A DNA stretch of 64,000 nucleotides, from NCBI GenBank assembly GCA_039815185.1, contig JBCBZT010000022.1:32001-96000 (forward strand), written 5' to 3'. Positions 1-39,070 of the stretch are shown piece after piece. Both the position numbers and the translations under genes were made by a program. The notes under the pieces were generated by a model. It searched no databases. It worked only from the letters and a program-made list of their open reading frames with translations, and was not told the DNA's origin. Numbering within the stretch: the stretch's first letter is position 1; each line of letters starts with the position of its first letter. This DNA comes from Cyanobacteria bacterium P01_A01_bin.123 (GTDB lineage: Bacteria > Cyanobacteriota > Cyanobacteriia > Phormidesmidales > Phormidesmidaceae).

Positions 1-677
1 CGGGGCGGCAACGCTGGGTTAATGCCCGTTGGCGTTGCCGCTTGCCCCTGAAAGGTGAGGGCAATGATATTGCCGTAAAGGGAAGTTCCCAGATCGTCTA
101 GCACCAGGTAAAAGCAATTATCGGGGGCAGGCTGTGCATTGAAGAGCGGCAGTTCGGGGCCATTCCAATCGCCATCAGAATTACGATTCCAGTAGTTGCT
201 GAAGCGATCGCGCAGCAGTGTCGGCGGGGCTTCTACCGTCGGGGCACTCAACAAATGGCGGACGCGAGGCTGGCCAATTTCCAACGCTTGGTCGGTGCTA
301 AAGATAATGGCCTCATTGCTAGCCGTGCGCTCTGTGGCGATCTGAGTACCGGACGGAATACGGTAAGTCTCTGGCAACTCTGACACCAGATAAAAGGCGA
401 TTTCAGTCGTTGCGGGTTGGGGCGGTTGGAGCCGAATGCCCAGCAATTCTAAAAAGGCAATGTACTGGCGACGAGGCACCTGGTTAAACCGCATCAGCAT
501 CTGATCGGTCAACCAGGCAAAAGACTCTAGCAACGTCACGCCCGGCTCGCTGGGATTGTAATTAGTCCATTCGGGACAGTAGCGCGGAATTCGCAGCAAA
601 CATTCCTGGAGCAAATCGCTATAGCGGCGATCGTCCAGATCAGCCTTGGGCAAATTCGGCAAAAAATCTAAGGCCAT
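1..677 (-). CDS. eCIS baseplate assembly protein (baseplate J / Afp11-like); 5' part only, continues past the window edge
   Basis: Not in the ORF track. Manual translation from ATG at 677: MALDFLPNLPKADLDDRRYSDLLQECLLRIPRYCPEWTNYNPSEPGVTLLESFAWLTDQMLMRFNQVPRRQYIAFLELLGIRLQPP, the typical LDDR..WT.YNPS.PG.TL.E N-terminus of eCIS baseplate proteins. Its start overlaps the gp25 stop (TAATG). Confidence 0.9.
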   Translation of the reverse strand, partial: MALDFLPNLPKADLDDRRYSDLLQECLLRIPRYCPEWTNYNPSEPGVTLLESFAWLTDQMLMRFNQVPRRQYIAFLELLGIRLQPPQPATTEIAFYLVSELPETYRIPSGTQIATERTASNEAIIFSTDQALEIGQPRVRHLLSAPTVEAPPTLLRDRFSNYWNRNSDGDWNGPELPLFNAQPAPDNCFYLVLDDLGTSLYGNIIALTFQGQAATPTGINPALPP

Positions 678-1144
678 TAGGGACTCTCCACGTAAGCATT
701 GATAACGTTGCCTTGAGGGGCCTCTCCATCCAATTCACTGCTCAGATAGAAGGGATACACCAGACTCTGACGCGCATAGGTTGTCCGTAACCGATAGTTG
801 ATGATGATGTAGACCCTGCCTTCAGAGAGTTGGGGTTGAGCTGAGACATTTTCGAGTTCGATGCGCGGTTCCCACTGTTCTAGGGCCTCCTGCACCCAAA
901 TTCTCATCAGCATCAGGGTTTCCGCATTGATGGGGGCAAAGGCCAGTTCAGACAACCGACACCCAAACGTAGGGCGATACAGCCGCTCCCCCGGTTCTGT
1001 AAGCAAAATCAACCAAATGGACTCCCGTACGCTTTGCCCTTCTGCACTCAGGGCTAGCCCCCCCTGTTGGCTGATCCCGAAGGGAAACGCAAAGCCTTGA
1101 CCGAGATGGCGCATTCGCGGCTGTCTGTTGGCAAGATTAACCAT
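677..1144 (-). CDS. GPW/gp25 family baseplate wedge protein (Afp9-like)
   Basis: GFAFPF...SIWLILLTEPGERLYRPTFGCRL...WEPRIEL...LVYPFYL motifs. Likely start is the ATG at 1144 rather than 1207. Confidence 0.92.
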   Translation of the reverse strand: MVNLANRQPRMRHLGQGFAFPFGISQQGGLALSAEGQSVRESIWLILLTEPGERLYRPTFGCRLSELAFAPINAETLMLMRIWVQEALEQWEPRIELENVSAQPQLSEGRVYIIINYRLRTTYARQSLVYPFYLSSELDGEAPQGNVINAYVESP

Positions 1145-1324
1145 TGGCCCTCGCTGATGGTGGTGCCTTTCTCTTATAAGACAGTGCGATGGGTCGGTAC
1201 CATCCAACGAAAGTTGGGTTGAGCCGTTTAAAAAGTAGACGTCGGTCTACTAACTTTGAAATTCACCAGGCGCTATAACAACACCATTGGGCACTTCCCC
1301 AAATTGTTGAGTCAGGTGTAGTCA

Positions 1325-36370: not shown

Positions 36371-36450
36371 ATTCCCCCCCGCTCCCCTGCTCCCCCGCGC
36401 TCCCCCTCTCCTTATTTCCCCCTCCCCCGAGCTTCTTCCCCTGCTCCCTA
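36371..36450. repeat. C-rich short-unit repeats (CCCCTGCT-like) in intergenic DNA
   Basis: cccccgctcccctgctcccccgcgctccccctctcc...cttcccctgctcccct. Confidence 0.55.
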
Positions 36451-36478
36451 AAGACCTATGCCAACCGCCTAAAGAACC

Positions 36479-39070
36479 ATGCCAACCCCACCCCGCCTGC
36501 CCGCCAACTTGAAGGTGCTCGGCAAGAGCAAAACGCTATCAACAGTGTCTGATAGAGCTTTGGAAACCGTTGACGAGCGGGCAGAAACTTTGTCATCACG
36601 CCACGGTGAAGACGATTTAAGCACTATTGATGCCCTGCAAGAGATGGGCGCGAGCCGGGTTGATAGCCGCATGGGGATTCTGCGCAGTCAGCTTTTCTTC
36701 ATGCTCTTTAGTCGCCTGCCCTACCCGGTGATTATGGTGCTGCCTTTCATCCATAAGGATGGCAAGCTGCTCATTCGGCAGTTGCAATGGCGTAGGGGCC
36801 GTCAGAAATTGACCGATGAGGCGACTGAAACAGACACCTCGACATCCGAGGCTGTGGATAGGCAGCGTCAAACCCTGATTCAAAAGGAACCATCCCCCTA
36901 TCTGCGATATCGCTGTCCTGACCATCCATTAACCTGTTCCCAGCTCGACCAAACGCAGCCAGCAGGGGACGCGGTTAATCATTGCCAACAGTGTGGATTT
37001 CCAGGGCTACTGCCAGAAAATGCTGAAATTCGAGGCCAGCAGGGGCGGTATCGGGTGGGTCGTTTTCTGGGCAGTCGGGGGCTGGGGCGTCTCTATACTG
37101 GGCAAGACGTGAATCGTCAGCAACCCGTGGTAATTCGGGAATACTTGCTGCCGGTTCAACACTTCAACGCTGCCGAACAGCATCTCACTCGCAATACCTT
37201 TGAAACCATTGCCGGACTCAAGTTAGCAGATGGTCGAGAACAGGATTTTCGACTGATGGAGCCCTGGGACGTGATTGGCGATCGCAATGACCCAGAGCGC
37301 TGCTATCTGATTACCAAGGGTGCCGTCGACACTTTCCCGACCTTGCGGTCTGTGTTGGTTCAGCAAGGTGCCCTGAAACCTAGCCAAGTACGCCAGATTC
37401 TCAACCAAGTGTTGCAAACCCTGGAATCTCTCCATGGTCAGACCTATGTGTTGCCCGCGGGGCAAATTCAAAAGGGGTTGGTGCATGGCAACCTGAACTT
37501 AGACAGCATCGTGATCTTGCCGGATGCTGATTCGTATTATGAACAGCCCCAACTCCTGGCATTTGTCAGAGACTTGGCACTCTGGGAGTCACTGTTTATC
37601 CCGCCCCCCGCCCCCGCCCAGATTTCGCAAGCCAAAGATGACCGGGTTGCCTTGGGGCAGATTGGTTTGTCTTTGCTGGTTGGACACTGGAACGACGAAT
37701 ATGGTCGTCCCCTCAAGCCCCGCAGTGCTCAAGTGTGGCCCGGCAAAGATCTGCCCTTAGAACAATTTCTACGACAGCTGCTGGATATCGAAGCGCCTAC
37801 CTTTGCAAGTGCCACTGAGGCTCGACAGGCCTTGTTGCAACTGCCGCCACTACCTACAACCCCATTGACGTCGTTGCAGGCAGTGGCTCCCGCTGAGCCC
37901 ACCCGCACCCGGCGGTTGCCGCTATGGGTTTGGCTCATACTGCTAGCGGGGTTGGTGGGGGTAATAGGGGCCGGATTGCTGGGATGGTGGTTGAGTCGCC
38001 GTCGGGCGATCGCGAGTCAGCCCCCGTCAGTATGCTGTATTGCCGAGGTTGCCGCTGTGCCACCCGGTCAGTTTAATTATGCTGCCGCTCGCCAAGGAAT
38101 CTGGTATCCCCTGTGGCACAGCAAAAATTTAGTGGTTCAGGGTAAAACGTTAGAGCAAGTCTTAGAGGCGGAACAATCGGATTTAAATCTGCAGTTGACG
38201 CCAGTGGCGAGCAGTCAAGTGGCGATCGATCAGGTGGGGCAAGATGGGGTTGATTTTGCGATCGCGCCTTTACCCAATAACCGGCCAACCGATGTCACCA
38301 TTGAACCGATTGCTTATGATGGGCTAGCCGTTTTTGTGGCCTTTAGCTACGTAGAACGTGAACAGGGCTTACCCCACCATCTACAGGGGCAAATTAGCCT
38401 GACGCAACTGCGCCAACTTTACACGGGTGAAATCACCAACTGGCAAGCCCTAGGTGGGCCAAATCTACCCGTTAAGCTCTATCTGCCCAACCAACCTGAG
38501 CTGATCGAAATTTTTGAAGCGCGGGTGTTGCAAACGCCAGAGGCGATTCAAACGTTCCGACGGCTGTGGGGGTTAGAGATGGGGCAAACTTCTAGTCGTG
38601 CCGACAGCTTTATTAGTCGTCCAGAGATAGAGACAACTGATGGCGAAATGCTCCCTACCTTGGAGATGTTGACACAAACCCTAGAAGACTTTGAAGCGGA
38701 GGCTCAAATTGGCAGTATTGGCTTTGCCAGCCTCAGCCAAGTCTATGGCCAATGTTCGGTCTATCCCCTGGCAATCGCAGCGGATGATGATGATGATGGG
38801 GTTCAACCCCTGTACCAACAGGATGGCACCCCGATTTCGCCAGCCGCTGATCTTTGTAGCGATAAGGGCAACTATGGCCCGGCGCAATCGCTGTTTGCCA
38901 ATCAAACGTATCCATTGGCCTACCCCCTAGCGGTGCTTTATCGGCCAGATAATAGTCGTTTACCGATTGGGCCTATCTTTGTGCAAATGATGACCACGGA
39001 TGAAGGTCAACAGATATTGGGTAAGACGGGATTGGTGCCTTTAGTGGAGCGGCAAAATCAAGTTGATTAA
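36479..39070 (+). CDS. zinc-ribbon + degenerate Ser/Thr kinase + TM + PstS-like binding domain membrane protein
   Basis: CP...C / CQQCG; LGSRGLGRLY; VHGNLNLDSI (no HRD or DFG); TM LWVWLILLAGLVGVIGAGLLGWWL; PBP motifs IAYDGLAVFV, YTGEITNW, YPLAYPL. True start may be downstream (e.g. 36734). Confidence 0.7.
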   Translation: MPTPPRLPANLKVLGKSKTLSTVSDRALETVDERAETLSSRHGEDDLSTIDALQEMGASRVDSRMGILRSQLFFMLFSRLPYPVIMVLPFIHKDGKLLIRQLQWRRGRQKLTDEATETDTSTSEAVDRQRQTLIQKEPSPYLRYRCPDHPLTCSQLDQTQPAGDAVNHCQQCGFPGLLPENAEIRGQQGRYRVGRFLGSRGLGRLYTGQDVNRQQPVVIREYLLPVQHFNAAEQHLTRNTFETIAGLKLADGREQDFRLMEPWDVIGDRNDPERCYLITKGAVDTFPTLRSVLVQQGALKPSQVRQILNQVLQTLESLHGQTYVLPAGQIQKGLVHGNLNLDSIVILPDADSYYEQPQLLAFVRDLALWESLFIPPPAPAQISQAKDDRVALGQIGLSLLVGHWNDEYGRPLKPRSAQVWPGKDLPLEQFLRQLLDIEAPTFASATEARQALLQLPPLPTTPLTSLQAVAPAEPTRTRRLPLWVWLILLAGLVGVIGAGLLGWWLSRRRAIASQPPSVCCIAEVAAVPPGQFNYAAARQGIWYPLWHSKNLVVQGKTLEQVLEAEQSDLNLQLTPVASSQVAIDQVGQDGVDFAIAPLPNNRPTDVTIEPIAYDGLAVFVAFSYVEREQGLPHHLQGQISLTQLRQLYTGEITNWQALGGPNLPVKLYLPNQPELIEIFEARVLQTPEAIQTFRRLWGLEMGQTSSRADSFISRPEIETTDGEMLPTLEMLTQTLEDFEAEAQIGSIGFASLSQVYGQCSVYPLAIAADDDDDGVQPLYQQDGTPISPAADLCSDKGNYGPAQSLFANQTYPLAYPLAVLYRPDNSRLPIGPIFVQMMTTDEGQQILGKTGLVPLVERQNQVD

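Follow-up and report, generated by a model that had tools for sequence, protein, structure and literature searches.

The closest solved relative of the locus described here, in sheath, baseplate protein J and VgrG spike, is CIS-Sc, the contractile injection system (CIS) of Streptomyces coelicolor, which belongs to dbeCIS subtype IId (PMC10066040, PMC12237407, PMC6899500). The locus occupies a 64,000-nucleotide (nt) stretch of Cyanobacteria bacterium P01_A01_bin.123, hereafter the window (contig C9 of source genome G000, positions 32001-96000; 8.09-Mb assembly, completeness 99.99, contamination 5.99). Cyanobacterial IId systems are on record: Chen 2019 lists them and treats split loci as an accepted class, and dbeCIS catalogues them, naming Calothrix. 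We found no experimental study of such systems in the literature. According to Danov 2024 and Geller 2021, DUF4157 is a toxin marker and GerE a regulator of extracellular CIS (eCIS), and immunity genes are frequently lacking. For AlgoCIS, a preprint (bioRxiv 10.64898/2026.05.27.728243) reports that loading requires both a disordered cargo N-terminus and an AAA+ ATPase, and that in characterised systems cargo pairs share leaders within a system, not between systems; ATPase-leader specificity is hypothesised there, not tested.

As far as the CIS-Sc papers describe it, CIS-Sc shares with the cyanobacterial locus a single J, a single contiguous VgrG, a P2-I wedge, a GerE regulator, Pvc16 and AAA+ genes divergent from the sheath, a chaperone-DUF6760 pair, and membrane proteins with immunoglobulin-like (Ig) and transmembrane (TM) segments. 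In contrast to CIS-Sc, we find here four tube genes, two chaperones, a Cis13-like fibre socket, a spike module in trans, a large polymorphic DUF4157 family and a prenyltransferase-fold gene, and neither LysM nor PAAR was seen with the partner spike. The host is a diderm phototroph. We propose, with a probability of about two in three, that C9 carries a IId CIS for which a spike module on contig C47 is the likely complement and whose own ATPase is predicted to load it with DUF4157 cargo bearing one common leader. Judged by its genes, the C9 locus encodes shaft, cap, baseplate, fibre socket and AAA+ ATPase (Table 1).

The structural core is of Streptomyces-like IId type

The sheath aligns over its full length with the CIS-Sc structures 8BKY and 9GTP (5e-118; PDB entries as assigned in the data statements of the CIS-Sc papers), whereas other solved systems match far more weakly (2e-55 for 7B5H, the thylakoid-anchored tCIS of Anabaena; <=1e-46 for AlgoCIS, PVC and Afp). 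The tCIS match is restricted to the C-terminal part of the sheath, and J has no match to tCIS. The Anabaena system (PMC8894136) is likewise a cyanobacterial CIS with DUF4157 cargo, yet of a different lineage. Even the fragment of J inside the window matches TIGR02243 at 5.9e-62. In a sheath tree of 24 rows (midpoint root, lineage I references left out), the 18 cyanobacterial sequences form one clade (100/100) adjoining the Streptomyces/Deinococcus IId sheaths, and the window type groups with relatives G012, G175 and G176 in a subclade (99/98). Streptomyces plasmid clusters have the same layout, with regulator-Pvc16-ATPase opposite sheath-tube-chaperone-DUF6760-large protein-tube-LysM-VgrG-gp25-J-P2I. 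Taken together, the sheath and J affinities, the tree and this layout argue for IId rather than Afp, PVC, MAC or tCIS, the family to which an earlier note, made from the letters of the window, had assigned the locus.

The CIS identity given in that note stands. Profile matches bear out its J, gp25, sheath, three tubes, Pvc16, AAA+ ATPase and NarL/LuxR regulator; the first of its two tail-assembly chaperones matches PHROG 508 (6e-5) and the second is a paralogue of the first; the three DUF4157/eCIS_core proteins and two single-pass membrane proteins are present. The sheath phylogeny that it had called for is the one given above. Its divergent arms around an island exist as an arrangement, which is largely the ordinary IId layout, found also in G014 and the Streptomyces clusters, and nothing special. 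It overlooked the DUF6760 frame, the GGGGGA site, the ABBA gene, the YbjN-type genes and the Sco4256-58-like proteins.

By published definitions, the tube, sheath, gp25, J, AAA+ and terminator homologues of an eCIS (Chen 2019) are all present, with the single Afp11 and single contiguous Afp8 of IId; a lineage I sheath and the long Afp11-14 baseplate set of lineage I are lacking. Afp13 and Afp14 are mostly absent from IId systems; a Cis13-like N-terminal domain occurs here below the model cut-off, and no Afp14 match turned up in the scans made. No capsid, portal or terminase, any of which next to the locus would have pointed to a prophage, matched among the 44 open reading frames (ORFs) of the window or 11 ORFs of its left flank. 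Genome-wide, a single terminase match lies on a contig other than C9, and no portal match exists anywhere. We therefore rejected a prophage and regard the locus, from its gene content, as a head-less IId CIS of Streptomyces-like lineage.

A probable spike module lies on another contig

The earlier note expected spike, LysM and fibre genes to the left of the window. The fibre part was right in kind: 2-4 kb to the left lie a P2-I wedge gene and a fibre-socket-like gene (NF053767 CIS13, 6e-14, below that model's cut-off). A profile search of all contigs found no spike and no CIS_tube/LysM gene on C9. PF04717 (spike) matches occur solely on C43, C47 and C96, and PF19266 (tube initiator) matches solely on C15, C47 and C96. 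Afp7 and Afp8, which an eCIS locus should contain, are thus absent from C9 and found on C47, C43 and C15. Beyond the baseplate arm, C9 carries unrelated genes and then three further DUF4157 genes.

Among 150 other genomes of the family, tube-1 of the window recurs at 83-87% in three (G012, G070, G075), all of which have a C47-type VgrG at 75-77%. A fourth genome with this VgrG, G047, holds other genes of the window cluster, and none of the remaining 146 has this VgrG at such identity. In G176, the whole window arrangement and a C47-type spike module stand on one 72-kb contig. Within the clade, separation of shaft and spike is real: single-contig G038 has its sheath at 4.298 Mb and its sole VgrG at 0.447 Mb, and G014 keeps the intact, unsplit gene order. 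We found no direct C9-C47 contig join; the left end of C9 branches to C51 and C110. This co-occurrence makes the C47 module the likely complement of the C9 cluster. Its VgrG is closest, among solved ones, to that of CIS-Sc.

Other CIS genes are scattered through the same genome. A paralogous IId set is dispersed over C14, C15, C43 and C95; a third, different CIS, with two sheaths, an ATPase of its own and a spike that is split, lies at C96:24005-59837; and C97:35881-40801 has an isolated trio of ATPase, Pvc16 and DUF4157 genes. Between tube and initiator, C47 (22986-30752) and C15 (17764-24093) carry a very long low-complexity gene, whose products in relatives measure 749-3277 amino acids (aa); conserved in a C-terminal motif and very uneven in length, it is a possible length-measuring protein.

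DUF4157 cargo falls into leader classes

PF13699 has 28 matches in 27 ORFs of the genome. Sorted by leader, these comprise 17 of an MVY class (13 with the leader in frame, four placed by N-module similarity), six KLLQTRP-like, two of a C96 class and two others (a C97 protein and the 2428-aa protein of the window). All four Afp15-like ATPases are followed by DUF4157 genes, each of a different leader class. An MVY leader search gave 19 matches in G000, one in G012, beside an ATPase, and none in 149 others; in G175, an MVY leader gene directly follows the ATPase. Across 12 aligned leaders, positions M1, Y3, R5, K6, R8, L25, S28 and L31 are invariant, while the flanking linkers diverge. The G+C fraction drops from 0.49-0.59 in the N-part to 0.38-0.46 in the C-part in 15 of 15 genes. 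ADP-ribosyltransferase (ART)/Scabin-like matches were obtained for five of 15 genes and two contig-end fragments, and other C-termini match M35 peptidase and actin-fragmin kinase. The family thus has the conserved N-terminal trafficking module and variable C-terminal toxin domains of polymorphic toxins.

Fifteen of the 17 MVY-class genes lie outside the window island. The island proposed earlier as the payload site does carry duplicated-leader cassettes, but it holds a small part (2/17) of the genome-wide family. As the AlgoCIS preprint describes them, its cargo likewise combine a disordered N-terminus, DUF4157 and a variable C-terminus, with an Alg15-type AAA+; there, two cargo belong to one system, whereas one genome here has 27 DUF4157 genes, four leader classes and four ATPases. 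Loading is known there to need leader and ATPase, and their specificity is hypothesised; the address-code step, in which each ATPase would read its own leader class, is therefore an inference. The family also resembles toxin expansions of the Moorena eCIS type in a filamentous cyanobacterium (18 predicted toxins, half with DUF4157; PMC11297309); it is larger, enriched in ARTs and divided into leader classes, which that report, as far as its text was available, does not mention.

Two island genes share a leader and differ in their C-termini

Within the island, the 908-aa cargo matches PF13699 (1e-32) and PF03496 (1e-7), has the R-S-E motifs VYRG, FMST and GEDE, and reaches HopU1, SpvB and VsdC in the PDB at 1e-4. 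It shares duplicated DNA (208 nt at 91%, 137 nt at 80%, 107 nt at 76%) with the 1125-aa cargo gene, confined to the upstream regions and 5' ends; the C-terminal parts have no mutual BLASTP match at E 1e-3. Cassette duplication with C-terminal swapping, as suggested before, is thereby borne out by shared 5' DNA and unrelated AT-rich C-termini. When 24 C-terminal parts were compared, that of the 908-aa protein matched, at 50% over 365 aa, a gene with another DUF4157 subtype. The slot between the ATPase and the Ig-TM gene holds different cargo in G176. In contigs of two other sequencing runs, the flanks are about 99% alike, the 313-aa gene about 90%, and the 1125-aa C-terminus shows patchy likeness; some runs have gaps in contig cover over 12007-14007, which were not scored as absence. 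A model of the 1125-aa C-terminus (predicted local distance difference test, pLDDT, 57) had no structure match at E<=0.001. At three sites (the window, C99:67571 and G175 C25:14996), the gene after a DUF4157 gene encodes a PF02636 methyltransferase with TPR.

YbjN-like genes follow both hydrophobic cargo, the 1125-aa and the 2428-aa proteins. The YbjN domain has a fold like that of type III secretion system (T3SS) chaperones (PMC5398634). The 313-aa protein is 27% identical over 82 aa to the 493-aa YbjN protein, and four of its 22 scanned homologues match PF10722; it is a candidate chaperone or immunity protein, and on these similarities looks chaperone-like. Pairing of TM-bearing cargo with a YbjN neighbour is frequent, not invariable: a 1154-aa YbjN-linked protein of G034 lacks a TM, and the C96 pair, a 1189-aa protein of G176 and G178 have a TM without YbjN.

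The chaperone and DUF6760 genes suggest a frameshift

In phage lambda, a tail assembly chaperone, gpG, is followed by an overlapping -1 frame that is joined to it through a conserved slippery run to give gpGT (PMC5009743). Here too, a chaperone gene carries a conserved slippery site and an overlapping -1 frame, DUF6760, with no start of its own. GGGGGA lies 15 nt before the DUF6760 Tyr codon in 12 of 13 loci. In a wider set it is in register in 22 of 30, the other eight lacking the anchor pattern, and the DUF6760 frame has no start codon in 13 of the 22. The codon pattern has a background of 7% (of 2330), which gives no p-value since the loci are related. Three Streptomyces loci have GGGGGA as well. 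Unlike in lambda, the predicted site is GGGGGA, sits in a chromosomal CIS and has no tape-measure gene directly after it. Our search listings held no report of frameshifting in CIS, and we found no literature on DUF6760. By this pattern, DUF6760 probably corresponds to the T portion of a G/GT chaperone throughout IId systems, Streptomyces included.

A prenyltransferase-fold gene precedes the giant gene

The 439-aa protein is modelled (pLDDT 75) with the PT-barrel fold of ABBA aromatic prenyltransferases: all 39 listed Foldseek matches are prenyltransferases (best 8e-7), an atlas search agrees with the fold, and a sequence search of the family against the PDB found nothing. Its gene precedes the giant gene in four of four cluster relatives. 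In Arthrospira it also precedes the giant gene, from which a Nif11 peptide separates it. Distant homologues are found in Nif11/NHLP clusters for peptides made by ribosomes and modified after translation (RiPPs). The tail (window 27331-27519) ends CxGG-like, 16 of 17 sequences having Cys as the fourth-last residue, and is not detectably a Nif11 leader; together with the end of the Arthrospira Nif11 peptide (CFSS; L108:11110-11388) it outlines a possible prenyl-acceptor site.

The adjoining 2428-aa protein does not fit the variable cargo of the earlier note, as two relatives keep it at 45-57% over nearly its full length, C-terminus included. Its central part recurs in large toxins from Streptomyces, for example a DddA-like deaminase carrier, and from elsewhere, which suggests a delivery domain. 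Tape-measure homology of this centre was not supported, with no phage match and with unnamed atlas matches.

Candidate operators mark the paralogous system

A GerE gene adjoins 25.8% of eCIS loci (Danov 2024, Geller 2021). In the genome, ATTCGAC-N4-GTCGAAT, a candidate GerE-family operator, lies 72-76 nt before the operons at C15:11756, C43:74765, C14:13880 and C95:87628, and also before sheath/pvc16b in relatives. With a matrix trained on relatives, the C15, C43 and C14 sites rank in the top 0.1% of 1204 background regions and C95 in the top 2.4%. This supports the view that these split loci are one regulon, that of the paralogous system. The window system scores more weakly (sheath 2.5%, gp25 gap 7.6%, C47 8.8%); the palindromes of the gap fall within the top 0.3% when a 3-site matrix is run on 717 background regions and within the top 7.6% when a 12-site matrix is run on 1204. 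Another palindrome, CCTAC-N4-GTAGG, seen before two cargo genes, proved not to be general. That the locus is regulated, as the earlier note held, is plausible given the regulator gene; a shared operator is clear for the C14/C15/C43/C95 system only, and none was found before island-type cargo genes.

Setting of the locus

Named homologues are cyanobacterial, and the runs containing window DNA are marine and coral metagenomes. In the baseplate arm stand two Cache-domain membrane proteins without an output domain (C9:25045-27800; G176 C29:66079-69140), a pair conserved near IId genes of G006, G007 and G176. A CDC48-family double AAA ATPase (39101-40978) converges on the cluster end and was not seen there in G175 or G176. 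A cation-efflux gene is flanked by 105-nt inverted repeats (90%; 42314-42418 and 43855-43959), like a small mobile cassette. Repeats of the AATTCAAAATT type lie between genes at 3829-3881, 23340-23415 and 24064-24113, and a short multicopy repeat with about 24 genome hits at 7176-7500. ORF 7025-7585, which overlaps the multicopy repeat, and ORF 20348-20683, which has no family match, were taken as no real genes.

Table 1 Features of the locus (window positions unless a contig is named)
Feature	Position	Strand	Remarks
Left continuation: P2-I wedge, Cis13-like fibre socket, two Cache proteins, Ig-TM-WD40 protein	C9:22710-32677		
Baseplate J, 5' part (Cis11/Afp11)	3-677	-	751 aa complete; TIGR02243 608 bits; PDB 9GTP 1e-102
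gp25 wedge (Cis9)	677-1207	-	PF04965 2e-23; start probably internal Met (about 155 aa)
Two AC-N4-GT palindromes, gp25/845-aa divergent gap	1202-1251	.	tentative candidate response-regulator operator
845-aa bitopic protein: Ig-like repeats, one TM (385-403), large C-terminal part	1325-3862	+	
S-adenosylmethionine (SAM) methyltransferase + TPR	4283-5938	-	PF02636 profile match
Uma2 passenger gene	6011-6625	-	459 nt shorter in three other runs
908-aa cargo: MVYQRKKR leader, DUF4157, R-S-E ART	7640-10366	-	likely start 10345
313-aa protein, divergent YbjN/T3SS-chaperone-like C-terminal domain	10718-11659	-	downstream of TM-bearing cargo
1125-aa cargo: MVYERKKR leader, DUF4157, helical C-terminal domain, two hydrophobic helices	11709-15086	-	
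Uma2 passenger gene	15433-16101	+	profile match
Afp15/Alg15-like AAA+ ATPase, winged-helix domain + AAA	16102-18090	-	PF00004/PF22977; predicted cargo loader
Pvc16/Cis16 cap protein, Ig-like extension	18101-19432	-	PF14065 2e-43
NarL/LuxR (GerE) response regulator	19432-20154	-	PF00072+PF00196
Contractile sheath, lineage IId	21576-23303	+	PF17482/PF04984
Three tube genes	23450-24001, 24151-24681, 24720-25253	+	PF06841, TIGR02241
Two paralogous tail-assembly chaperones	25297-25674, 25671-26063	+	PHROG 508 for first; 33% mutual identity
DUF6760 frame, -1 vs chaperone 2	26021-26197	+	PF20546 3.5e-11; no own ATG/GTG/TTG
GGGGGAG, predicted -1 frameshift site, end of chaperone 2	26039-26045	+	conserved in register
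439-aa ABBA (PT-barrel) prenyltransferase-fold protein	26200-27519	+	conserved C-terminal tail ending CVGG
2428-aa conserved protein: two DUF4157 domains, central helical/hydrophobic region	27524-34810	+	
493-aa protein, C-terminal YbjN domain	34825-36306	+	PF10722 7e-9
863-aa bitopic protein: cytoplasmic part, TM at 484, PstS-like binding domain	36479-39070	+	PF12849 2e-6

Discussion

In the mechanism that we propose, the regulator would turn on both arms of the locus. Chaperone 2 would have two products, a short form and a DUF6760 fusion, the latter through -1 slippage at GGGGGA as for gpG/gpGT, and particles would assemble in the cytoplasm on the trans-encoded spike. The AAA+ ATPase may then recognise the disordered MVYQRKKR..LFASPDLET leader and thread cargo into the tube, YbjN-type proteins holding hydrophobic cargo soluble. 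Particles would fire outward at competing cells, with ADP-ribosyltransferases as the commonest payload. Copying of the GC-rich leader cassette and its fusion to AT-rich toxin domains would generate new cargo. A broader picture is doubtful as a whole, namely that several injection systems work side by side in one cell, that a recombining, genome-wide library of DUF4157 toxins is sorted among them with each AAA+ reading its own leader class, that shaft and spike are unlinked modules, that the chaperone is frameshifted, that a RiPP-derived prenyltransferase lipidates a component, and that this is the first outward-firing, fibre-bearing IId branch.

Several observations weigh against this proposal. 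The source assembly is in 133 contigs with 5.99% contamination, a worry countered by the GC of the CIS contigs, which is that of the genome as a whole. The C47 VgrG is not followed by a PAAR gene: PF05488 has no match, and DUF4280 occurs solely beside the C43 VgrG and at no C47-type VgrG in G000 or G176. The slippery site is missing from Deinococcus locus L102, and GGGGAAG stands at one G012 locus. As to the cargo, the MVY leader is recognisable in one independent relative (G012) plus G175 only; G070 and G075 hold the cluster with no leader match; and G176 cargo keep only an S(L/I)FAS(D/E) motif. Stops or contig ends interrupt several MVY genes, an MVY leader is missing from the 2428-aa protein encoded in the same operon, a shared operator was found ahead of none of 18 MVY-class starts (5% level), and no immunity gene follows the 908-aa ART cargo. 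Adjacency of leader and ATPase could reflect tandem duplication only. Finally, the locus keeps Sco4256-58-like and CisA-like membrane proteins, and characterised IId relatives act inside the producing cell, as the CIS-Sc papers describe.

These last points bear on the direction of action. A tentative alternative is a self-directed cytoplasmic CIS that, like CIS-Sc, would use the 863-aa and Ig-TM proteins to dock on the membrane of its producer and, under stress, would kill cells of the filament, the DUF4157 genes being secondary or acting after lysis. Membership of IId by sheath and J fits this, as does an ART cargo without a downstream immunity gene. The Ig-TM region of the 845-aa protein is homologous to Streptomyces IId RICIN/'hydrolase' proteins of the Sco4256-58 type (39 and 36 bits; E-values of 9e-13 and 7e-12 from a 48-sequence set), CIS-Sc effectors reported to fill the tube and to be needed for cell death. 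The 863-aa protein has the layout of CisA, and its homologues lie inside or beside IId clusters of relatives; its cytoplasmic part is, in our own reading, kinase-like without catalytic motifs. Yet no CisA homologue follows the baseplate, and the window proteins have no similarity to three Streptomyces plasmid CisA-position proteins, so the 863-aa protein appears CisA-like in architecture only, without detectable homology. A Cis13-like socket gene is present, whereas CIS-Sc has no fibre, and 17 varied cargo are not obviously needed by a self-killing device. IId ancestry and the membrane proteins thus favour inward use, and the fibre socket and toxin diversity favour outward use; we lean slightly towards use against competing cells and consider membrane-docked, inward use unlikely.

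Somewhat improbable, too, is that the leader classes are traces of duplication, with all ATPases and IId particles loading all DUF4157 cargo and the C43 and C47 spikes interchangeable. Tandem duplication of cassettes beside existing cargo, fast leader drift between relatives and the 48% identity of the two IId ATPases would be expected on such an account; it does not readily explain eight invariant positions in 12 leaders with diverging linkers, the strict co-occurrence of spike type and cluster type, or the sharing of leaders within, not between, systems in the AlgoCIS preprint. A decaying prophage tail or non-functional relic, with DUF4157 genes exported otherwise, would suit the lack of a local spike and some broken cargo genes, and is very improbable given structural ORFs that are all intact and keep their order at 57-93% in G175 and G176, the absence of head-gene matches among the window and left-flank ORFs, and complete cover of the right arm (30 of 30 bins) in all four other runs.

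The preferred reading, a C47-completed IId system with same-leader cargo, describes a machine whose core is ordinary; what is distinctive is its split build and its leader-sorted cargo library. Four ATPases with matching leader classes in one genome provide ready orthogonal pairs for the leader-ATPase specificity hypothesised by the AlgoCIS preprint. With 15 of 17 same-class genes outside the island, eCIS surveys bound to clusters miss most of the cargo and can miss spikes.

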